This document shows positions 1,833-18,222 of a stretch of 64,000 nucleotides of DNA, piece after piece (the stretch's first letter is position 1; each line of letters opens with the position of its first letter). The notes beneath the pieces are model-generated. The model was given only the letters and a program-made list of their open reading frames with translations, made no database searches and was not told the DNA's origin. The stretch is from Bacteroidales bacterium (GTDB taxonomy: Bacteria > Bacteroidota > Bacteroidia > Bacteroidales > UBA932). The DNA lies in contig JAFPWG010000027.1 in NCBI GenBank assembly GCA_017395045.1, positions 177,637 through 241,636 on the forward strand, in the 5' to 3' direction. The translations under genes and the position numbers were made by a program.

Positions 1833-4025
1833 ATGAAAAAAACCGTATTGACAGCGGCGCTCGCCGCAGTGTGCGTCTGCGCAGGTGCGCAGACCGTCGA
1901 GAGACTGGACAGTGTCGTGGTCTCTTCGTCCCGGGCCGGATCCAAGACGCCCGTTACCCATTCCGATGTCGGCCAGGATGCCCTCCGCGCGTCCAATCCG
2001 ATGAATTCCCTGCCGATGACCCTGAACCTCCTTCCGTCCGTGGTGACCTACAACGAAGGCGGTACCGGCCTGGGGAATTCCGCGATGACGGTCCGCGGTT
2101 CCAAGGGGTCCCAGGTGAACGTGACCCTGAACGGCATCACCCTGAACGACGCCGAGTCGCAGGAGGTTTTCTGGGTCAATATCCCCGCATTGACCGCCCT
2201 CCTATCCAGCGTGCAGGTACAGCGCGGCCTGGGAACATCCGCCAACGGCGCGGGTGCTTTCGGCGCCAGCATCAACATGAGCACGGCCTTTGTCGCCCCG
2301 GATCCTTCATTCCGGTGGGACGTTTCGGCCGGATCGTACAATACGTTCCTGACTACGGTCTCCGCGACGAGCGGCCTGCAACCCTCCGGGCTGTATTTCA
2401 ACTTGGCCTATTCCGCCGGGACGACCGACGGTTATATCCGGAACGCCGGTGTCGGATCCGCCTCGCTCTTCGCGGTGGCCGGCTGGCTGAAGGGACGGAA
2501 CTCCCTGCGGCTCACATACTTGATGGGGAACCAGCGAAGCGGGATGACCTGGGACGGCATCTCGCCGGAGATGTATGCGGTGGACCGCCGGTACAACGGG
2601 GCGGGGGAATACGTGGACGATGCGGGGAAGACCTGCTATTATCCGAACCAGACTGACAACTATGCCCAGCACCACGTGCAACTCAACTATACCCGCCGGC
2701 TGACCGACCGCCTTACATGGGCGAATACGGCGGACTATACCCGCGGAGACGGTTATGACGAATACTACAAGACCGGCCGCAAATTTGCGGAATTCGGCTA
2801 CCCTTTCTCCGACGTGGACGGCGTGAAGAAGAGCGACATGATCTACCGGAAGAAGATGGACAACAATCTGTATGTGTTCCAGTCCGACCTCCGGTACCGG
2901 TCTTCGTTCCTGAATCTGGACGGCGGAGTGAACCTCTCCCGCTACGAGGGAGGGCATTGGGGCGAGATGCTGTGGGCCCGTCTCCTGGGCGCTGCCTATG
3001 ACTATGCGTCGATGAACCGGGATTTCACCTGGTATCGGAATACCGGTCTCAAGCAGGAAGTGAATACCTATCTTCGCGCTGAGTATCAGCCGCTTCCCTG
3101 GCTTACTGCCTATGCGGACCTGCAGTACCGCCACATCGGCTACGATTTTGTGGGTGCCGATGACAAGGCGAGCGACAAACCCATCGACTATCACCAGAAA
3201 TGGAATTTCTTCAATCCCCGGGCAGGCGTAACCGCCGTTTTCGGCGCGCATAAACTGTTCGTCTCCGCGGCCGTCGGCCACCGCGAGCCGGGCCGGAGCG
3301 ACATCAAGGAGAACATCAAGGGCGAGATGATTCCCATCAAGCCCGAGTCCATGCTGGACATCGAGGCGGGGTATGCGTTCAGCGGTTCGCATTTTTCGGG
3401 GTCGGCGAATGTCTATCTGATGGAGTATGATGACATGTTGCTGGAGACGGGCCGCCTGAGTTCGTCGGGCTACGCCATCAAGGAGAATGTCGGTCGCGGC
3501 TGGCGGCGGGGTGTGGAACTGGCTGCCGCCTGGACGCCCGCCTCCTGGGCCCGGATCGACGGCAACCTGACTTTGAGCACGAACAAGCTCCGCGCCTTCA
3601 CCGCCTATGTCGAGAACTGGGTGGACGGCGGATACAATGAAGAGCTTTACGAGAATACGACGATGCTCCTCTCTCCTTCCGTCATCGGCATGGGAAGGTT
3701 GTGCCTGTCTCCGTTCCGAGGCTTCTGGAATCCTTTGACCCTGACTTTGAGTGGCAAGTATGTCGGCAGGCAGTATTGGGACAATACGCAGAATGCGGAC
3801 CGATGCATTCCGGCTTTCTTCGTTTCAGACCTTTCCCTGAGCCATTCCGTTCCGCTCTCTTTCGGGACGCTGGACGTTTCCTTCCATGTAAATAACCTGT
3901 TTGACCGGGAGTATTACGCGTATGCCTGGGTCTATCGGGCGTGGGATGGATCTGATTATCTGGAGGCTGGCTTATACCCCCAGGCTACCCGAAATTTGAT
4001 GCTGAAAGTCTCCTTAAGTTTTTAA
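1833..4025 (+). CDS. TonB-dependent outer-membrane receptor, probably thiamine-related given the riboswitch
   Basis: 730-aa ORF with a signal peptide and a plug region (VVVSSSRAGSKTPVTHSDV, MTVRGS, NVTLNGITLNDAESQ). C-terminal aromatic residue (…LKVSLSF). TPP riboswitch immediately upstream. Confidence 0.85.
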   Translation: MKKTVLTAALAAVCVCAGAQTVERLDSVVVSSSRAGSKTPVTHSDVGQDALRASNPMNSLPMTLNLLPSVVTYNEGGTGLGNSAMTVRGSKGSQVNVTLNGITLNDAESQEVFWVNIPALTALLSSVQVQRGLGTSANGAGAFGASINMSTAFVAPDPSFRWDVSAGSYNTFLTTVSATSGLQPSGLYFNLAYSAGTTDGYIRNAGVGSASLFAVAGWLKGRNSLRLTYLMGNQRSGMTWDGISPEMYAVDRRYNGAGEYVDDAGKTCYYPNQTDNYAQHHVQLNYTRRLTDRLTWANTADYTRGDGYDEYYKTGRKFAEFGYPFSDVDGVKKSDMIYRKKMDNNLYVFQSDLRYRSSFLNLDGGVNLSRYEGGHWGEMLWARLLGAAYDYASMNRDFTWYRNTGLKQEVNTYLRAEYQPLPWLTAYADLQYRHIGYDFVGADDKASDKPIDYHQKWNFFNPRAGVTAVFGAHKLFVSAAVGHREPGRSDIKENIKGEMIPIKPESMLDIEAGYAFSGSHFSGSANVYLMEYDDMLLETGRLSSSGYAIKENVGRGWRRGVELAAAWTPASWARIDGNLTLSTNKLRAFTAYVENWVDGGYNEELYENTTMLLSPSVIGMGRLCLSPFRGFWNPLTLTLSGKYVGRQYWDNTQNADRCIPAFFVSDLSLSHSVPLSFGTLDVSFHVNNLFDREYYAYAWVYRAWDGSDYLEAGLYPQATRNLMLKVSLSF

Positions 4026-9645: not shown

Positions 9646-9671
9646 GCAAAAAGCATGCTATGAAGCGATGC

Positions 9672-10691
<1,020 letters not shown>

Positions 10692-10805
10692 TTAAACGTA
10701 TTTCTAACCAGTCTGAAAGATTCATCTTTCTTGGACTCGCAAATTTACGAAAAAGTTTGGAGAATTCCGTATCTTTGCAAAGAGATTTTAAAGTTTTTTT
10801 ATAAT

Positions 10806-11654
10806 ATGGCTCCGATGAAGATACTGATCAGCAACGACGACGGTTACAAGGCAGGTGGCATCCACGCTCTGGCGCGGATCATGGCGGATTTCGGCGAGGT
10901 GACGGTCGTCGCTCCGAAGTATCATCAGAGTGCGATGTCCATGGCCGTTTCACTGGGCATGAAACGGTTGGCGCACAAGGCCCTTCCGGAGGAAGGTCCG
11001 GGTAATTGGCACTATCTGGATGCTACGCCGGCTTCCTGCGTGAAGTTCGGCCTGGAATACTTTTACGAGCACCGCAATCCCGACCTGGTGATCTGCGGAA
11101 TCAACCACGGTTCCAACGCGGCCACGGCCGCCAATTATTCCGCCACCATCGGTGCGACGGAAGAAGGCGCCCTGAACGGCTGCAAGGCCATCGGCGTCTC
11201 CCTCTGCAATTTCCGTCCGGATGCGGACTTTTCCCTGGTGGAACGGTATCTCCCCGGCATCCTGCACTTCCTGCTGGAGAACTGGCCGGAGGATAAGTAC
11301 GGCCTGCTATACAACATCAATTTCCCGGATGTCCCTGCGGACCGGCTCCAAGGCATCCGCTTTGCCCGGCAGGGCCGCGGGCACTGGGTGCGCGAGTTCC
11401 AGGAATGGGACGTGGAACGCCTCCAGGCCTACGAAGCGACCGGTTTCCATCTGCAGGAGAACCTGCCTCCGCTGGATGAAGGGGAGACCGGCTACATGAT
11501 GATCGGCGACTTCGTGGACGATGAGGACGGGGCGATGGATGCGGACCACGTGCTGATCGAATCCAACTGGATCACCATTGTCCCGAATACCATCGACCGG
11601 ACCGATTTCGTGGAACTGAAGCGCCTGCAGGGTCTGCAGGGGACAGCCCTATGA
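10806..11654 (+). CDS. surE: 5'/3'-nucleotidase SurE
   Basis: MAPMKILISNDDGYKAGGI..., GINHGSNA. The ORF-track entry 9660-11654 has a spurious N-terminal extension antisense to gap. TATCTTTG -7 box at 10770-10777. The ATG at 10815 is also possible. Confidence 0.9.
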   Translation: MAPMKILISNDDGYKAGGIHALARIMADFGEVTVVAPKYHQSAMSMAVSLGMKRLAHKALPEEGPGNWHYLDATPASCVKFGLEYFYEHRNPDLVICGINHGSNAATAANYSATIGATEEGALNGCKAIGVSLCNFRPDADFSLVERYLPGILHFLLENWPEDKYGLLYNINFPDVPADRLQGIRFARQGRGHWVREFQEWDVERLQAYEATGFHLQENLPPLDEGETGYMMIGDFVDDEDGAMDADHVLIESNWITIVPNTIDRTDFVELKRLQGLQGTAL

Positions 11655-12808
11655 AATACTATATTGTAGCCGGAGAAGCTTCCGGGGACCTGCACGGTTC
11701 CAACCTGATGCGCGGCCTGTATGAGCGCGATCCGGAAGCGGACATCCGGTTCTGGGGCGGCGGACTGATGGACGCGGCATACAAGGAAAACCAGCAGGGA
11801 AACGGTCTGGTCCGGGATTACAGGGAAGGGGCCGTCCTGGGCATCTGGGAAGTGCTCGTCCAGGCGCGGAAACTGCTCCGGAGGGTCCGTGATTGCGAGG
11901 AGGACATCACCGCCTGGAAGCCTGACGTGGTCATCCTCATCGACTATCCCGGTTTCAATTTCCGGATCGCCGAATTCGCCCATAAGGCCGGATTCAAGGT
12001 TTTCTGGTACATCGCTCCGAAGGTATGGGCGTCCCGAGAAGGCCGCATCAGGAAGTTGAAGGCTTTCGTGGACAAGCTCTTCATCGTCTTCCCTTTCGAA
12101 ATCGATTATTTCAGGCGAAAGGAGGTCGATTTCATTTACCGCGGGAATCCGCTGGTGGATGCCGTGGACCGTTCCGAAGCCCTGCATGAGACGCGCGAGG
12201 CGTTCCTGGAGCGTCACGGTCTTTCCGACCGGCCCGTCATCGCCCTCCTCGCCGGCTCGCGCAGCGGGGAGATCAAGACGATGATGCCCACTTTCATGGC
12301 GATGGCAGCCCGTCTGCACGAGATGCCGGAATACGCCGGCTATCAGTTCCTGATCGCCGCCGCACCCGGACGTACGCGGGAGGATTACGATCTGGCAGGG
12401 AATGATGGGTTCGTGCACGTCGTCTTTGGCGACACCTACGGCGTACTTCGCCAGGCCCGCGCCGCCGTTATCAATTCCGGCACTGCTTCGCTTGAGGCGG
12501 CCCTCATCGGCACGCCTCAGGTCGTGGCCTACCGGACCTCTGCCCTGACCGCTCTCGTAGCACGGATCATCCTTAAAATCAAATATGTGAGCCTGGCAAA
12601 CCTGATTCTGGACCGGGCTGCTTTCCGGGAGCTTCTGCAGGAAAGCTTCACCTCCGACCGTCTTACTGCAGAAGTCCGCCGCCTTCTCGAAGACACGGAC
12701 TGCCGGACCCGGATGCTTGCCGATTACACCGAAGTCCGGGAACTCCTTGGCGGAACCGGTGCTTCCGAAGCCGTTGCGGAAGCGATGATATCGGAACTGA
12801 AAAAATAA
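11651..12808 (+). CDS. lpxB: lipid-A-disaccharide synthase
   Basis: MKYYIVAGEASGDLHGSNLM..., full-length LpxB-like. ATGA overlap with the surE stop. Confidence 0.9.
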   Translation: MKYYIVAGEASGDLHGSNLMRGLYERDPEADIRFWGGGLMDAAYKENQQGNGLVRDYREGAVLGIWEVLVQARKLLRRVRDCEEDITAWKPDVVILIDYPGFNFRIAEFAHKAGFKVFWYIAPKVWASREGRIRKLKAFVDKLFIVFPFEIDYFRRKEVDFIYRGNPLVDAVDRSEALHETREAFLERHGLSDRPVIALLAGSRSGEIKTMMPTFMAMAARLHEMPEYAGYQFLIAAAPGRTREDYDLAGNDGFVHVVFGDTYGVLRQARAAVINSGTASLEAALIGTPQVVAYRTSALTALVARIILKIKYVSLANLILDRAAFRELLQESFTSDRLTAEVRRLLEDTDCRTRMLADYTEVRELLGGTGASEAVAEAMISELKK

Positions 12809-12859
12809 TAGCTTCAATTGTGCAAGATTTTTGCAGGATGTAGATTTAAAGTGCAGATT

Positions 12860-13105
12860 ATGAAAAAGGACCGTATCAGATTGATGTTCGCGATCGGGCT
12901 TTTGGGCCTGCTGGGGTTTTCTTCCTGCAGCCCCCGGCTCCGGCCGCGCCGGACGGAAAATCCGGTGGATACACTCAAGGTGCATCTGCCCGACACGGTC
13001 ATTTTCAGGCAGAATCCGGATGCGCCCATCAAACTGATGTACGGGGTCCCGCCGACACGTTTCGAGAAGATGGAAGCGCCGGAAAAACAATTGAAAACGG
13101 AATAG
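12860..13105 (+). CDS. small lipoprotein, truncated paralogue of the next gene
   Basis: MKKDRIRLMFAIGLLGLLGFSSC lipobox. Shares the leader and a YGVPPTRF motif with the downstream lipoprotein (YGCPNADF). Start taken at an internal ATG of ORF 12818-13105. Confidence 0.55.
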   Translation: MKKDRIRLMFAIGLLGLLGFSSCSPRLRPRRTENPVDTLKVHLPDTVIFRQNPDAPIKLMYGVPPTRFEKMEAPEKQLKTE

Positions 13106-13107
13106 CG

Positions 13108-13587
13108 ATGAAAACTGCACTTGGAAAGGGATGGAAATGGATCCTGGGCCTTTTAATGGGCCTTCTGGGATTTACCGGATGTGGAAAACTTGGCATCTTC
13201 AGGGCGGAGTACGGATGCCCCAATGCCGACTTCAAACTGGTCGGTGAGGTAAAGGATGCGAAGGGCAAGGGAATCGAAGGGATTCGCGTCGTGTTCACGC
13301 CAAACCCTGAAGTTCCGCAAGAGCAACAGGAATGGGAGAGCGACACTCTCTATTCCGACGCCCGGGGTCATTTCGAGAAAGAACGCCTGAAATACAATTG
13401 GCCTGACAGGGCAGAGAAGGCCACCGTCAAGTTCGAAGATGTCGATGGCAGCGCCCACGGTTCGTTCCAGACGAAGATTCTCAAAGGTTCAGAATTGACC
13501 GTCGAGCAGACAAAGAAAGGCGACAAGAATTGGTACTCCGGTGAATACACCATTCAGGCCGATGCCGTGTTGGAAGAAGACGACTGA
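13108..13587 (+). CDS. radical-SAM-associated putative lipoprotein
   Basis: Lipobox LLMGLLGFTGC. The mature part starts GKLGIFRAEYGCPNADFKLVGEVKDAKGKGIEGIRVVF (CarboxypepD_reg-like beta-sandwich start). Stop overlaps the rSAM start (TGATG). Confidence 0.7.
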   Translation: MKTALGKGWKWILGLLMGLLGFTGCGKLGIFRAEYGCPNADFKLVGEVKDAKGKGIEGIRVVFTPNPEVPQEQQEWESDTLYSDARGHFEKERLKYNWPDRAEKATVKFEDVDGSAHGSFQTKILKGSELTVEQTKKGDKNWYSGEYTIQADAVLEEDD

Positions 13588-14657
13588 TGAAAGAAAGACT
13601 TTCGCTCAGGCGCCGTATCGCGCTGGATATCACGAAGAAGCTGCAGGATGATGTGATCGCATCACATCCGCTCCGGCAGCTTTTTTGGGAGTGCACCCTG
13701 CGCTGCAACCACCACTGCCGCCACTGCGGCAGTGACTGCAAGCAGACGGCCTCGGTGCCCGATATGCCCCTGGCGGATTTCGCCAAGGTTCTGGACAGCG
13801 TGCGTGCCGCGACGGACCCGCACAAGGTCATGATCAACGTCACCGGCGGCGAGCCGCTGATGCGTCCCGACCTGGAAGCCTGCGGCCGGATGATGTATGA
13901 AAAGGAGTTCCCTTGGGGCATGGTCACGAACGGCTGGGGCCTCACGCCGGAGCGCTATCGGCGCCTCCTGCAGAGCGGTCTCCGCGCGATGACCATCAGC
14001 CTGGACGGCCTGGAGGCGGACCACGACTGGATGCGCGGAGTCCCCGGCTCCTTCAAGCGCGCCTCCGCCGCTATCAAGATGGTTGTAGACTCGGGTGAAA
14101 TCGCATTCGATGTCGTCACCTGTGTGAACCGGCGCAATTTCCCGCACCTGAATGAACTGAAGGAATACCTCATCGGCCTGGGCCTCAAGGAATGGCGTTT
14201 GTTTACGGTTTTCCCGGTCGGACGCGCCGCGCAGGACCCTGAACTGCAGCTTACCGGCGAGGAACTCCGCGGCCTGATGGAATTTATCAAGGCTACCCGG
14301 AAAGAGGGCCGTATCCGGGCGGAATTCGCCTGTGAAGGCTTCCTGGGCAACTACGAAGGCGATGTCCGCGACCATTTCTACATGTGCCAGGCCGGTGTCA
14401 ATGTGGGCTCCGTCCTCGCCGACGGCTCCATCTCGGCCTGCGCCAGCATCCGTGCGGACTACCATCAGGGCAATATCTACGAGGACGACTTCATGGAAGT
14501 CTGGAACACCCGATTCCAGCCCTACCGCGACCGCTCCTGGATGTACAAGGACGACTGCGCCGCCTGCCGCTTCTGGAAGTATTGCCGAGGCAACGGAATG
14601 CACCTTCGGGATGAAAACGGCAAGCTGATCCAATGCCTGTTGAACAAGATGAAATGA
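13587..14657 (+). CDS. radical SAM/SPASM-domain protein
   Basis: CNHHCRHC (CX3CX2C), GGEPLMRPD, C-terminal Cys-rich auxiliary-cluster region (CQAG...SACASI...CAACRFWKYC). Confidence 0.85.
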   Translation: MKERLSLRRRIALDITKKLQDDVIASHPLRQLFWECTLRCNHHCRHCGSDCKQTASVPDMPLADFAKVLDSVRAATDPHKVMINVTGGEPLMRPDLEACGRMMYEKEFPWGMVTNGWGLTPERYRRLLQSGLRAMTISLDGLEADHDWMRGVPGSFKRASAAIKMVVDSGEIAFDVVTCVNRRNFPHLNELKEYLIGLGLKEWRLFTVFPVGRAAQDPELQLTGEELRGLMEFIKATRKEGRIRAEFACEGFLGNYEGDVRDHFYMCQAGVNVGSVLADGSISACASIRADYHQGNIYEDDFMEVWNTRFQPYRDRSWMYKDDCAACRFWKYCRGNGMHLRDENGKLIQCLLNKMK

Positions 14658-14686
14658 AAACAGCCCGCCGAAGCGGGCTGTTTCAG

Positions 14687-17425
14687 TTATTCAGCGTTCT
14701 CGTATCCAAAGTAGTAGTCCTTCTTCATCGTCGGGATGCCGTCGCGCATCCAGGCGGGTTCCGGGGCGCCCTTCAGATAGTGGTCGAAGAACTGCTGTAA
14801 CCTGATGCTCAAGTCCTTGCGGTTGCGTCGTTCACGCAGGTTATGGGCCTCGTCGTTGTATTCCAGCAGCCAGGCCGGCTTGCCCAGGCGGCGCAGGCCC
14901 ATGAACATCTCGATGCCCTGGTACCACGGAACGGCGCCGTCGTTGTCGTTGTGCATGATCAGAACCGGCGTCTGCACGTTCGGGAGCCGGAAGAGGGGAG
15001 AGTTCTCCATATAGAGTTCCAGACCGTTCCAGAGGTCACGGCCGATGCGGGACTGCGTCTGCTCGTACTGGAACTGGCGGCTCATGCCGGACTCCCAGCG
15101 GATGCCGCCGTAGGCCGATGTCATGTTGGACACGGGCGCGCCCGCGCCAGCCGCCTTGAACAGGTTCGTGCGGGTGATGAGGTACGCGACCTCGTATCCG
15201 CCCCAGCTCTGGCCCTGGATGGCCATGTTCTCCCTGTCGATCCAAGGGAACTTTGTGAGGGATTCCACACCGCTTACGATGCAGTTGTAGGCCGACTGTC
15301 CCGGCGTGCCCGGCGTATAGACGATATCCGGTACGAAGACCACGTAACCTCTTGATGTATAGAAAGTAAGGTTAACGGTGGACCAACTCGGCTGCGGGGG
15401 AATATTCCTGTACAGTGTTTCGGAACTGGTCTCGTAGAAATATGTCATCAGGGGATATTTTTTCGAGGCGTCGAAGTCCTCGGGCTTATAAAGGATTCCA
15501 TCCAGGCGTTTCCCGTCATAGGTTGTCCAATGGTACAGTTCCGCCGTGCCCCAGTTATAGTCCGCCTGCTGGGGATTGATGGCCGTGAGTTTTGCGGTGT
15601 TCTTCCCGAAATCGGTGCAGTACAGGTCCATCGGTTCCTGGAAGTTGCCCTTCAAATAGGTGAAGACAGGAGCGTCCTTCGCTTTCCTGAGAACGTCAAA
15701 GGTGTACCCGCCGAAAGCCAATGTCTTGAAATTCAGTTTCTTCGCCTTTACCTGGCAAGAGGCGAGCCCGTTCTCCTTTGTAATCTCGTCGAAGACGCTC
15801 AGGTAGATGGTTTCGCCCGGAGCGATGCCCGGTTCCTCTTCGCTGTCTTTCGTGCTGATGTACCGGTAGGTCCGTTTCTGCTCCCGGCCCTGGGTCAGAC
15901 GGGTTGCCTCCCCGTCGGAAAGCCGGATCATCCAGAGGTCATAACGGTCGTTCAGGATGACGTCCTCATCGTCTTTCGTCCAGGCTGCGACGCCGTAGGA
16001 TTCGGGCATCATCGGATGGTCGTCCTTCTCATCCCAGAAGACAGTGTCTGCCGCCAGGTCCAGAAAACGTTCGTTTCCGATGTCGTAGGCCTTCCAGCCG
16101 CGGGCGGGATAATCCCACCAGATGGCGTAGCGACCCTTCGGAGAAAGCTGGGCGGAATCGAAGGCACCGCGGGCGATTTCCTGCCGGCGCCCGGAGCCCG
16201 GGAAGATGATGGTAAGGATGGATTCTCCCTGCACATTCCATTGACTTTCAATGGGGTTTACAGGACTTACCTCCAGGATTGCTTCAGCATCGTAGTTGTC
16301 GGTGAAGATCAGACGGTCCGCCTTGCTGGTATTGAAGGGAATGAGGCCTTCGTCCTGATACAGGCAGGGATAGGTCCGACGCTTGTCGCGGGGTAGGCTC
16401 GCCTTCATCCCGGGCGGAATTTCCGCCGCGTTCCAATTCCAGATATCCAGTCCCGCCGTCTCAAAGGGAACGAGGCTGGTATCTTTGACGGGGACATACT
16501 CCTGGATGCCCGCATAAATGGAACCGAGCTTCTTGCTGAAGAAGTAGGTACTGTTCTCCGTAAGGCCCCAGTTCTCAGGCATATTGCGGCGCTGGTCGGC
16601 GGCAACGAGTTCCCAGGCTTCGTCCCGGATGATATCGTAAAGCCATAGGGCGGCGTGCTTGCTTCCGGTAGAGGCCGTATCCTTTGCCTGAAGGAAAAGG
16701 GCTTTCTCACCGTATTCGTCGAAGGTCGGGACGGCGTGGAAAGTGGCCGTATCGGCTATCATGCGGGTCTTTCCATCGGAATGGAAACCGACGACCGAGT
16801 GCTTTTTGTCCGTTTTGCGGATAAAGCCCAGCGTTTTCCCATCCTTGCTGAAGGCATACTTGTCCACATTCTTCAGGGTGTCCAGATGTCCGTCGGAGAA
16901 ATGATAAACGGCCAGGGGCGTTCCCATGTCCTTCTCGACCTTCTTTACGAAAGACGTGTCGATGGTTGCGAAGGCAAACCGGTCCACCGCATGCATCCCC
17001 ATTTGGAAGGACTTGACATTCGCGAACTTACGAATGTCACCCGTACGGAGGTCAATGACGGCGAGGGAATCCTGGGGCAGCTTGTCGCCCGTCAGTTTCC
17101 GGATCTTCGCACGGCGGGTCTTCTGGAATTCCGGCCTGATCAGGCAGACGGCATGGGAGTCGTCGTCCAGGATGCGGGCCTGGTATCCCCGGGGAATCTC
17201 GATGACACGGGCGTCCTTCCTTCCGGCGATGCGGAAATAAAGCGTCCCGTCACCCTCCTGCGGATTGACCATATAGGAGACGACGCGGCCGGAAGGGGAC
17301 AGGACGGTCCTGGAGACCGCCTGCCATCCGTCGTAGGCATCATGGTCGAGCGGCTTCTTCTGGGCTGGTGCCGGCATCGGAAGTGCCACCAGGGCGACAA
17401 ATAGCAAGAATCTTTTCATATTCAT
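14687..17425 (-). CDS. S9-family serine peptidase (prolyl oligopeptidase/DPP-like) with N-terminal beta-propeller
   Basis: GQSWGGY nucleophile elbow and a C-terminal alpha/beta-hydrolase fold. Signal peptide MNMKRFLLFVALVALPMPAPAQ. Start set at 17425 (ATGA overlap with the upstream stop), not the 17491 track start. Confidence 0.85.
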   Translation of the reverse strand: MNMKRFLLFVALVALPMPAPAQKKPLDHDAYDGWQAVSRTVLSPSGRVVSYMVNPQEGDGTLYFRIAGRKDARVIEIPRGYQARILDDDSHAVCLIRPEFQKTRRAKIRKLTGDKLPQDSLAVIDLRTGDIRKFANVKSFQMGMHAVDRFAFATIDTSFVKKVEKDMGTPLAVYHFSDGHLDTLKNVDKYAFSKDGKTLGFIRKTDKKHSVVGFHSDGKTRMIADTATFHAVPTFDEYGEKALFLQAKDTASTGSKHAALWLYDIIRDEAWELVAADQRRNMPENWGLTENSTYFFSKKLGSIYAGIQEYVPVKDTSLVPFETAGLDIWNWNAAEIPPGMKASLPRDKRRTYPCLYQDEGLIPFNTSKADRLIFTDNYDAEAILEVSPVNPIESQWNVQGESILTIIFPGSGRRQEIARGAFDSAQLSPKGRYAIWWDYPARGWKAYDIGNERFLDLAADTVFWDEKDDHPMMPESYGVAAWTKDDEDVILNDRYDLWMIRLSDGEATRLTQGREQKRTYRYISTKDSEEEPGIAPGETIYLSVFDEITKENGLASCQVKAKKLNFKTLAFGGYTFDVLRKAKDAPVFTYLKGNFQEPMDLYCTDFGKNTAKLTAINPQQADYNWGTAELYHWTTYDGKRLDGILYKPEDFDASKKYPLMTYFYETSSETLYRNIPPQPSWSTVNLTFYTSRGYVVFVPDIVYTPGTPGQSAYNCIVSGVESLTKFPWIDRENMAIQGQSWGGYEVAYLITRTNLFKAAGAGAPVSNMTSAYGGIRWESGMSRQFQYEQTQSRIGRDLWNGLELYMENSPLFRLPNVQTPVLIMHNDNDGAVPWYQGIEMFMGLRRLGKPAWLLEYNDEAHNLRERRNRKDLSIRLQQFFDHYLKGAPEPAWMRDGIPTMKKDYYFGYENAE

Positions 17426-18222
17426 TGGATTACGGATAAATCGACATAACCTGGAGCACCGTAGAGGACGGCCTTGTCCGTGAATTGCCACATTGTCCAG
17501 GGCTGGAATCGGGGCGGCTGCTCGTTATAGCGGGCGATCCACATCGGATAGTGACCGGTGATTTCCGACGAGAGGATATCCCGTGCGAAACTGTCGGACG
17601 TGTACACGATCGGGGTTCGTCCATAGTGCTTCTCAACGGTTTTCAGCCATAGAAGGACCTTCCGGTTGAGTTCCTCCCGGGTGCATCCGGAATGCATGGT
17701 TTCAACGTCCAGGATGGGTGGAAGGTCACTGTGACGCAGGCGGACGTGGCCGATGTAATGCTCAGCCTGCTTTATGGGATCCTTCGAGGAGCGGAAGAAA
17801 TGGTAGGCTCCCCGGGCGAAAGGATGTGAACCGGCATCCTCCCAATGGGCTTCGAACCGGTTGTCGGACATCCTTTCTCCTTCCGTCGCCTTGATGATGA
17901 CGCGGGTGACGGGAAAGATCCTTTTTGCGTGGAGCAGGTCTTTTGTGGTAGTGCCCCTGCCATCCACCATGACCAGCAGGGAATCCCATACGATCCCTTC
18001 GTTGTAGTGGGAGATGTCCAGGCAGAATTCCTTGGCTCCGTCAGGAATCCTTGCGCCGGAAGTCGCGAACCGCCCGCTTCGGTAGTATGGGTAACAGACC
18101 AGGCAGACCAGGACGAGCAATCCCGCGGCAACCATCCACGGCTGGACCTTCCAGCGCTTCATTTTTTTGCGCCGGACAGGCTTCCGAGTGGCCTTTCTGA
18201 CTATTAACTTTTTTGTTACCAC
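17422..18222 (-). CDS. glycoside hydrolase family 25 muramidase (lysozyme), membrane-anchored
   Basis: CLDISHYNEGIVWDS..., VIIKATEG, GAYHFF, PILDVE, MWIARY are GH25 blocks. Basic N-terminus plus one TM (WMVAAGLLVLVCLVCY). Confidence 0.8.
   Translation of the reverse strand: MVTKKLIVRKATRKPVRRKKMKRWKVQPWMVAAGLLVLVCLVCYPYYRSGRFATSGARIPDGAKEFCLDISHYNEGIVWDSLLVMVDGRGTTTKDLLHAKRIFPVTRVIIKATEGERMSDNRFEAHWEDAGSHPFARGAYHFFRSSKDPIKQAEHYIGHVRLRHSDLPPILDVETMHSGCTREELNRKVLLWLKTVEKHYGRTPIVYTSDSFARDILSSEITGHYPMWIARYNEQPPRFQPWTMWQFTDKAVLYGAPGYVDLSVIQ

Follow-up and report, generated by a model that had tools for sequence, protein, structure and literature searches.

A gene module of a Bacteroidales bacterium (GCA_017395045.1, contig JAFPWG010000027.1) was analysed within a stretch of 64,000 nucleotides, here called the window, in whose coordinates all positions are given. 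The module joins two small lipoprotein genes to the gene of a radical S-adenosylmethionine (SAM) enzyme of the SPASM type, and the reading we favour, at a probability of roughly 60%, is that the pre-lipoproteins are modified in the cytoplasm at a Tyr-Gly-x-Pro motif and only then undergo Sec export and lipidation. The enzyme would act on the still unfolded pre-lipoproteins encoded beside it, which in the window are an 81-aa protein (12860-13105) and a 159-aa protein of family TIGR04134 (13108-13587), and would recognise two elements: the signal-peptide end L-L-G-F-x-[S/G/A]-C, doubling as a leader, and the motif [E/M]-Y-G-x-P-x3-[Y/F], a few to about 19 residues past the lipobox Cys. The 5'-deoxyadenosyl radical would abstract a hydrogen within the motif, at its Tyr (Tyr0, position 0 in what follows) or the adjacent Gly, and leave the motif covalently altered, most likely through a Tyr-centred C-C or C-O crosslink and alternatively through an epimerisation, after which the modified chain would leave the cytoplasm through Sec, receive its lipid on the lipobox Cys and become anchored in the envelope. 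Substrates, site, order of events and chemistry are what we infer, and the predicted role of the lipoproteins as substrates of the enzyme is strongly backed by comparative genomics. The features of the module are the following.

12860-13105 (+): small lipoprotein gene, 81 aa, the second candidate substrate (conserved gene family with motif and lipobox)
12908-12928 (+): LLGFSSC, signal-peptide end and lipobox of the 81-aa lipoprotein (family-specific L-G-F at -5 to -3)
13040-13063 (+): YGVPPTRF (Y-G-x-P-x3-F) in the 81-aa lipoprotein (invariant in the alignment of the 81-aa family)
13108-13587 (+): TIGR04134 lipoprotein gene, 159 aa, encoding signal peptide, variable linker, motif and beta-sandwich (hidden Markov model (HMM) score 86.3 bits)
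13162-13182 (+): LLGFTGC, signal-peptide end and lipobox (Cys25) of the 159-aa lipoprotein (L-5/G-4/F-3 conserved in the family)
13210-13233 (+): YGCPNADF (Tyr35 to Phe42), proposed recognition and modification site (motif conservation and enrichment)
13585-13589 (+): TGATG, stop/start overlap from lipoprotein to radical SAM gene (translational coupling)
13587-14657 (+): TIGR04133 radical SAM/SPASM enzyme gene, 356 aa, encoding neither a signal peptide nor an RRE domain (the recognition element of peptides that ribosomes synthesise and that are modified after translation, RiPPs) (HMM score 567.5 bits)
13704-13727 (+): CX3CX2C cluster motif (C40, C44, C47), flanked by conserved C36 and C51 (alignment)
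14331-14636 (+): auxiliary-cluster region, C249, C267-x12-G-x4-C285, C324-x2-C327-x5-C333-x3-G337, H339 and C350 (alignment with the sulfatase-maturating enzyme anSME and conservation in 81 sequences)
14657-14684 (no strand assigned): GC-rich hairpin with a 12-pair stem between the radical SAM gene and a convergent S9 peptidase gene (reported on the minus strand; palindromic)

Both the 159-aa lipoprotein and the enzyme belong to families that are already catalogued. The lipoprotein matches TIGR04134 ('radical SAM-associated putative lipoprotein') over residues 10-153 with 86.3 bits against a cutoff of 39.8, and the 356-aa enzyme matches TIGR04133 with 567.5 bits against a cutoff of 425, its residues 7-355 aligning with model positions 1-349 of 350; PF04055 (Radical_SAM, 63.1 bits, cutoff 29.5) and PF13186 (SPASM, 31.6 bits, cutoff 21.5) are matched as well. 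An initial annotation of this DNA had suggested both the TIGR04133/TIGR04134 membership and the lack of any experimental characterisation, and was right on both counts: NCBIfam holds TIGR04133 (rSAM_w_lipo) and TIGR04134 (lipo_with_rSAM) as 'hypothetical equivalogs', and no publication, function or experimental characterisation of the pair was found in the searchable literature, in which the Tyr-Gly-x-Pro motif led only to unrelated eukaryotic papers. The C-terminal domain of type IX secretion system (T9SS) type B has an accession that we take to be TIGR04131. The sole paper found to cite 'TIGR04134', a T9SS review (PMC11611037), uses it for that domain, apparently as a misprint for another accession. 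The Bacteroides SPASM/ATP-grasp systems were also considered and are a separate family. What is new is the motif, the leader-like signal peptide, the short partners and the incomplete ligand set of auxiliary cluster I (Aux I) in the enzyme; the TIGR04134 model takes in neither the motif nor the conservation of the signal peptide, and it leaves out the short partners without the domain and the additional 81-aa family. The sequence features on which the initial annotation was built are all present, namely the TGATG overlap, in which the TGA stop of the lipoprotein gene and the ATG of the radical SAM gene have one base in common, the lipobox GFTGC, the CNHHCRHC, GGEPLM and Cys-rich C-terminus of the enzyme, and a single extra Cys in the mature lipoprotein (Cys37 in EYGCPNADF, at +13 when the lipidated Cys is +1).

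The arrangement of lipoprotein and enzyme genes is far from chance. A search with the enzyme alignment in one genome per species returned at least 574 confirmed relatives, essentially all of them from Bacteroidales (Prevotella, Phocaeicola/Bacteroides, Alistipes, Rikenellaceae, Muribaculaceae, Paludibacteraceae and rumen lineages), and the best 80 loci among these are the basis of the counts out of 80 given here; Phocaeicola or Prevotella strains that carry the module include L017, L028, L062 and L066. In 70 of the 80, the lipoprotein profile matched a gene directly adjoining the radical SAM gene on the same strand, which lay upstream in about 55 loci, the gaps of ~0-20 bp being typical across species, and immediately downstream in about 13. 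Six of the ten loci missed by the profile (L036, L055, L049, L073, L079 and L061) carry a divergent small lipoprotein gene in the adjoining position, and with these counted at least 76 of the 80 species loci have a same-strand partner beside the radical SAM gene; among the remaining misses, one is apparently frameshifted (L069) and another is cut by the contig end (L070). The reciprocal test, which started from lipoprotein-seeded metagenome loci, found a radical SAM gene nearby on the same strand in 39 of 47, and seven of the eight failures end too early on the contig, leaving 39 of 40 testable loci. The order of the genes flips between lipoprotein-enzyme and enzyme-lipoprotein without the pair separating. 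The conservation of the pair, which the initial annotation had put forward as a check on its proposal, holds whether the loci are seeded on the enzyme or on the lipoprotein. Clustering of all open reading frames (ORFs) of the 80 loci yielded no conserved third gene, whether a transporter, a protease or an RRE or other leader-binding protein: the top extra clusters overlap the radical SAM gene itself, mostly on the opposite strand with median offsets inside it, and are in our reading frame-shadow ORFs, and the best real neighbours are a sigma-factor-like gene (9/80), lpxB (8/80) and surE (7/80). A general functional tie to lpxB or surE was considered and rejected, these linkages being confined to close relatives of this organism. 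Two of the loci come from contigs titled 'Candidatus Methanomethylophilaceae archaeon' (L014, CAVERO010000146.1) and 'Lachnospiraceae bacterium' (L053, CAVJZZ010000089.1); both hold typical Bacteroidales modules with enzymes 62-70% identical to that of the window, and are probably mis-binned contigs rather than cases of horizontal transfer.

Outside the signal peptide, the partner lipoproteins have a short conserved motif in common. The lipoprotein family comprises 712 clusters at 50% identity (E <= 1e-10), and 145 of 148 representatives have a YG.P match. The consensus of these 145 is [E/M]-Y-G-x-P-x-[A/V]-D-[Y/F], with the following composition by motif position.

-1: E 66%, M 27%, L 5%
0: Y 100%
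+1: G 100%
+2: variable, Cys 23%
+3: P 100%
+5: A or V 71%
+6: D 54%
+7: Y or F 93%

The residue equivalent to Cys37 is Cys in about 23% of the representatives and otherwise T, Q, S, V, M, G or E, and even close homologs have C, T, G, Q, M, S or E in this place. The initial annotation had asked whether a combined Cys/YGxP site is conserved and had put its emphasis on the single extra Cys, with a thioether or formylglycine implied there; the YGxP part is upheld, whereas Cys37 was rejected as the modification site on account of its variability. Its broader idea of a modified lipoprotein serving as a protein-sized, RiPP-like substrate is strongly backed by the comparative genomics, the modification itself being something we infer. 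The spacing from the lipobox Cys to Tyr0 is 4-19 residues in the representatives, across a variable linker, and 1 in the L049-type partners. The full motif was counted 81 times in 109,424 ORF residues of same-strand neighbours of the radical SAM gene and 11 times in 831,492 ORF residues elsewhere in the same loci, a 56-fold enrichment beside the enzyme; among the 11 are two motif-bearing lipoproteins, probably extra copies. Within the window, its only coding occurrences are in the two genes upstream of the radical SAM gene, with one more in a non-coding frame. Giant generic proteins of beta-sandwich repeats, to which the domain part of the profile matches, do not contain it, and this absence, the enrichment and the signal-peptide comparison below led us to reject the motif as a generic feature of Bacteroidales or of the fold.

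The other proposed recognition element is the end of the signal peptide. The 159-aa lipoprotein begins with MKTALGKGWKWILGLLMGLLGFTG immediately before its lipobox Cys and has a K-rich, positively charged n-region, a hydrophobic core and the ending LLGFTGC, a textbook type II signal peptide from which it is predicted to be a lipoprotein; the 81-aa protein reads MKKDRIRLMFAIGLLGLLGFSS up to its Cys and, further on, KLMYGVPPTRFEKMEAPEKQLKTE. Across the family, the ending L-L-G-F-x-[S/G/A]-C is conserved at L-5 (88%), G-4 (91%) and F-3 (84%), compared to about 10% each for G-4 and F-3 in 55 further lipoprotein-like signal peptides of the same genomes. Only two of these 55 contain LGF, and both belong to extra family lipoproteins directly downstream of the radical SAM gene. 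Because signal-peptide sequences normally drift freely, the conserved L-G-F end suggests that something reads the signal peptide before it is cleaved. The lipobox Cys is the sole invariant Cys of the partners. Radical SAM chemistry is confined to the cytoplasm by SAM and the Fe-S clusters, and the enzyme, which needs both and has no signal peptide, must therefore act there. In some partners (L003/L004), an acidic stretch right after the Cys (CDPDDPDD) resembles the Bacteroidetes lipoprotein signal for surface export or outer-membrane vesicles discussed in PMC13056109. The window lipoproteins (CGKLG and CSPRL) have no acidic stretch after the Cys, and its presence in some partners only means that localisation may differ between paralogs.

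What follows the signal peptide differs greatly among the partners. The AlphaFold2 (AF2) model of the 159-aa lipoprotein (pLDDT 82) has a beta-sandwich at residues 39-150, most blocks of which exceed 90, with the signal-peptide helix, the linker and residues 33-38 less defined. Foldseek returned generic transthyretin/CarboxypepD_reg-like sandwiches at a TM-score of ~0.45 and 8-17% identity, the intradiol dioxygenase core and the SusC NTE domain among them, and Pfam CarboxypepD_reg matched below threshold; such generic matches are uninformative, and deriving a function from the fold was given up. Many partners have no sandwich at all and consist of the signal peptide, a linker, the motif and a short tail. 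The partner in L002 is GFSSCEKPGPDMYGPPLAMYGPPMYGPPENAY and those in L003 and L004 are GFSSCDPDDPDDRPMYGPPVYMYGPPAPSG, all three with tandem MYGPP; the L061 partner has GFTSC and a coiled coil followed by LVYGPPTTDFRPNIDR; those of L036 and L055 have GFSSC and a coiled coil followed by LLYAVPNVPYREIKEMKK; and L049, L073 and L079 have LIFMACYGPAPRNYQVV. Each of these short partners retains Tyr0 and the aromatic residue at +7, and some partners carry additional tandem copies of the motif. That partners with no sandwich keep the LLGF..C end together with the motif indicates that the motif has a role apart from the fold.

The 81-aa protein, which the initial annotation had passed over, belongs to the same module as one of the short-partner class. 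It has no family match in NCBIfam or Pfam, and its relatives form 210 clusters at 90% identity, all unnamed or 'hypothetical', in whose alignment LLGF.SC and L-M-Y-G-V-P-P-x-R-[F/Y] are invariant. The family is present in 34 loci, always on the strand of the module, in the orders small-lipoprotein-enzyme, enzyme-small-lipoprotein and small-enzyme-lipoprotein. One to three paralogous lipoproteins accompany each enzyme: close relatives of this organism have three ahead of a single enzyme gene (L094, L101 and L107), and other genomes have two, in tandem or flanking the enzyme gene, much as RiPP clusters may have several precursors. A single enzyme with several precursors that have in common a leader-like element and a short core motif is, as far as the sequences can tell, the signature of an enzyme and its substrates.

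The enzyme is very strongly conserved, with 60-95% identity between its versions in Prevotella, Bacteroides/Phocaeicola, Alistipes, Muribaculaceae and rumen lineages. In 81 sequences spanning that range, 98 of the 356 positions are at least 97% conserved, and C40, C44 and C47 of CNHHCRHC are invariant in all 81; GGEPLM lies at residues 87-92, and C249, C267, C285, C324, C327, C333 and C350 make up the Cys residues of the C-terminal part. No PqqD/RRE match was found in Pfam, and ahead of the barrel there are only ~30 residues with one helix (7-25). Among solved structures, the nearest are SuiB, PqqE, BlsE, SkfB, anSME and EpeE, at 14-24% identity, those other than BlsE at 14-18%, with SuiB and PqqE as the top structural neighbours, and a Tyr-centred crosslink is favoured because these two closest structural relatives crosslink aromatic residues; epimerisation or another C-H functionalisation would be the alternative. 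Among profile families, the next best are an uncharacterised SPASM family, Nif11-type peptide maturases, NirJ2/AhbD and MftC, at ~100-130 bits and far below their cutoffs. Reading the chemistry from homology was attempted and proved not decisive, the relatives spanning crosslinking, thioether-forming, epimerase, dehydrogenase and small-molecule enzymes.

This breadth of relatives bears on a rather unlikely alternative that is nevertheless the best of those considered, namely that the enzyme makes or modifies a small molecule derived from a tetrapyrrole, lipid or sugar, or a protein encoded elsewhere, and that the lipoproteins bind, carry or use the product. NirJ2 and AhbD of the heme pathway score ~120 bits, similar to the peptide maturases, and MoaA, DesII and viperin stand beside BlsE among the structural neighbours, but a family-specific signal peptide is hard to explain unless it is read in the cytoplasm. 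The good conservation of the beta-sandwich counts in its favour, but the short partners dispense with this domain and still retain the signal peptide and the motif, of which there can moreover be tandem copies. In this window, the lipid A gene lpxB precedes the module, but that linkage is found in just 8 of the 80 loci, and in these loci no transporter or other biosynthetic gene is conserved nearby. Several further observations weigh against a modification of the lipoproteins at the motif. Judged from sequence similarity, homology does not distinguish peptide from small-molecule chemistry, the heme-pathway scores being a case in point. Two of the 80 loci (L059 and L074) have an intact radical SAM gene with no partner nearby, and one lipoprotein (L119; Ga0256405_10000128, 2986-3468) has ~3 kb of flank on each side and no radical SAM gene, the sole true orphan among the 47 lipoprotein-seeded loci. 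In two-domain members, the unit 'AEYGMPHADYK plus sandwich' occurs twice, with the motif opening each domain, where it could equally be a site of modification in every domain or a structural cap. In the long forms, the AF2 model places +4 to +13 in the first beta-strand (from residue 39), and the conservation of A/V at +5 and Y/F at +7 could in these forms be partly structural. Finally, a comparison for co-variation of enzyme and motif in loci with atypical motifs gave a few group-specific substitutions in the enzyme (P109, F302 and G100), and these are inseparable from phylogeny.

The auxiliary-cluster region of the enzyme brings in a second and considerably less probable alternative. Among solved structures, this C-terminal region aligns by sequence only with anSME, C285 corresponding to anSME C276, C324/C327/C333 to C317/C320/C326, and Gly337 to C330. 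Aux I of anSME is ligated by C255, C261, C276 and C330 (PMC6231123), and the canonical seven-Cys SPASM motif CX9-15GX4C...CX2CX5CX3C...C includes that last Cys (PMC5715301). The TIGR04133 enzyme has six of the seven, with Gly337 in place of the Cys of CX3C and with the upstream C249 present; at position 337, 78 of the 81 sequences have Gly, 3 have Ala and none has Cys, and H339 is invariant. By the alignment, the fourth Aux I ligand would be either non-canonical, with C51, C179 and H339 as invariant candidates, or missing; the AF2 model has a pLDDT below 50 in the SPASM region, too poor to judge Aux I. Given that SPASM enzymes often make thioethers and that the open Aux I site of CteB binds a substrate Cys (PMC6231123), the absence of the canonical fourth Cys would be in keeping with Cys-based chemistry, either a thioether or formylglycine on Cys37 or a thioether from the lipobox Cys, the only invariant Cys of the partners, to Tyr0 or another motif residue, in which case the product would not be a true lipoprotein. 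Cys37 can be Gly, Val or Glu, however, and is not a family-wide site; the N-terminus is that of a classical type II signal peptide; a thiol consumed in this way would block lipidation; and the range of Cys-Tyr distances would be odd for a defined macrocycle. The proposal that there is no functional link at all, the enzyme being a housekeeping maturase such as that of sulfatases and the adjacency incidental or merely operonic, was the outcome that the initial annotation had set against its own idea, and it is already effectively refuted: anSME is a detectable remote homolog (E 3e-7), but the enzyme scores 567 bits on TIGR04133 with anSME-type models outside its top 25 NCBIfam matches, the adjacency is kept both ways across Bacteroidales families while the flanking genes change, and the partners have no C/S-x-P-x-R sulfatase motif.

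Returning to the cytoplasmic modification of the pre-lipoproteins, we tentatively advance a bolder version of it, which we consider possible but doubtful as a whole. The module may represent the first radical-SAM class of lipoprotein-RiPP hybrids, in which the LLGFxxC end would serve as leader for a SPASM enzyme that has no RRE, the lipobox Cys would possibly ligate Aux I as in CteB, and an undescribed Tyr-centred modification would be placed on Y-G-x-P-x3-[Y/F] in one to three lipoproteins per genome, in hundreds of gut and rumen Bacteroidales species. If true, abundant members of the human and animal gut microbiota would decorate envelope lipoproteins by radical-SAM modification, the logic of the DAG-RiPPs would extend past the multinuclear non-heme iron (MNIO) enzymes, and a new mode of recognition, with a signal peptide as leader and no RRE, would be coupled to a probably new Tyr-Gly-x-Pro reaction. 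The enzyme is one of the best-conserved proteins in its neighbourhood and occurs in at least 574 species genomes, and the lipoproteins form 712 clusters. The hypothesis is now narrowed to an 8-residue site and to natural minimal substrates of ~60 mature residues.

In the window, the module is tightly packed, the 81-aa lipoprotein gene ending two bases upstream of the 159-aa lipoprotein gene. Upstream on the same strand are surE (10815-11654) and lpxB (11651-12808), with GAPDH on the opposite strand, and downstream of the radical SAM gene lies the convergent S9-type peptidase gene (14687-17419, -). The hairpin at 14657-14684 is a likely terminator closing the unit and, being palindromic, could act in both directions. 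No sigma-70-like promoter site was found for the module; the closest perfect copy of the Bacteroidetes -7 box (TAnnTTTG) on the + strand lies upstream of surE, at 10770, and between lpxB and 12860 there is only a one-mismatch version. Over the whole window, this box occurs 37 times against 12.8 expected, a count reached in 0 of 100 shuffles, and many boxes form divergent pairs on opposite strands 20-60 bp apart (for example 948/968, 4924/4955, 10740/10770, 18307/18327, 20828/20848, 22479/22499, 36047/36077 and 59425/59485), which suggests compact bidirectional promoter regions. The region has 57% GC and contains long, apparently spurious ORFs at 9660-11654 (+), 11492-13120 (-) and 13662-14633 (-): the 664-aa ORF at 9660 joins a frame shadow opposite GAPDH to the real surE (start 10815), and the minus-strand ORFs of 542 aa and 323 aa overlap lpxB and the module and could mislead gene callers. 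The S9-family peptidase (910 aa), whose matches to Dpp5 (83.6 bits) and Atxe2-type lasso-peptide isopeptidases (63.6 bits) are weak and sub-threshold, stands close to the module in only 5 of the 80 loci and is probably unrelated to it. Beyond the peptidase gene, 17422-18222 (-) encodes a protein of 266 aa that has a basic N-terminus, a hydrophobic segment and no NCBIfam match at E <= 1e-5.

Compared with known systems, the locus is a full member of the TIGR04133/TIGR04134 pair, with adjoining genes on the same strand in a Bacteroidales host, and its closest parallels outside that pair are instructive for the proposed order of events. The sulfatase-maturating enzyme anSME acts on a short motif, Pro-containing and close to the N-terminus, in sulfatases that are later exported, and, by analogy with it and with the MNIO-dependent DAG-RiPPs, modification would precede export here. 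Like anSME/AtsB, the enzyme is a SPASM protein of similar size (anSME ~370 aa) that has no RRE domain, and anSME matches its model with a TM-score of 0.59. Unlike a true anSME, it has only remote similarity (4K37, 32.9 bits, E 3e-7; 15% identity), and whereas anSME recognises C/S-x-P-x-R with Cys or Ser as the target, in substrates that are usually not encoded adjacently, and has an Aux I fully ligated by Cys via Cys330, TIGR04133 has Gly or Ala at this last position. Membership was not borne out, since no anSME model is among the top 25 NCBIfam matches and the partners have no conserved Arg at the corresponding position.

The aromatic residue at the centre of a short conserved core motif recalls PqqE (Glu-Tyr), SuiB (Lys-Trp) and DarE/DynA, of which PqqE joins the gamma-carbon of Glu to the ring of Tyr (PMC5715301). 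These systems, unlike the present one, use an RRE or PqqD, small leader-core peptides and dedicated export or proteolysis, none of which is present here; the module did not group with the RRE-dependent maturases (SuiB, CteB, SkfB and PqqE with PqqD), as no RRE is fused to the enzyme and no conserved small partner gene exists besides the lipoproteins. The incomplete set of Aux I Cys residues in TIGR04133 resembles the open Aux I of the sactisynthase CteB. CteB, however, possesses an RRE and forms its thioethers from Cys residues of the core, whereas the TIGR04134 partners have no conserved core Cys and their sole invariant Cys is that of the lipobox, at the junction of signal peptide and mature protein; with the only non-lipobox Cys (Cys37) conserved at 23%, they do not qualify as sactipeptides or ranthipeptides.

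The nearest parallel in overall design is provided by the DAG-RiPPs (DybA/DybH and NedA/NedBC; PNAS 2026), RiPP-lipoprotein hybrids modified by MNIO (DUF692) enzymes (PMC13056109). In these systems, cytoplasmic modification precedes the lipoprotein pathway and was shown to compete successfully with export; two-gene clusters are among the known cases, and even proteins above 30 kDa are modified (PMC13056109). The module described here likewise sets a putative precursor with a type II signal peptide beside an enzyme that has none, so that the sequence pattern and the adjacency of DAG-RiPPs are both found. As in many of those clusters, there is no partner protein besides precursor and enzyme, the putative substrates are protein-sized, and the host belongs to the Bacteroidota. 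It differs in its enzyme, radical SAM/SPASM instead of the MNIO of all described members, and in its motif, an N-proximal Y-G-x-P-x3-[Y/F] instead of their C-terminal CPxCGxG with its Cys chemistry; DAG-RiPPs are marked by a demonstrated enzymatic modification together with diacylglycerol and N-acyl lipidation of the product, and for the present module modification and lipidation are predicted. In its logic, then, the module appears to resemble both anSME with its sulfatases and the DAG-RiPPs and to be a member of neither. The genome mining for DAG-RiPPs covered MNIO families only, and its authors state that RiPP-lipoproteins beyond MNIOs 'may exist', with no mention of radical SAM enzymes (PMC13056109). 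By analogy, the TIGR04133/TIGR04134 family is a strong candidate for such RiPP-lipoproteins and would be the radical-SAM counterpart of the DAG-RiPPs.

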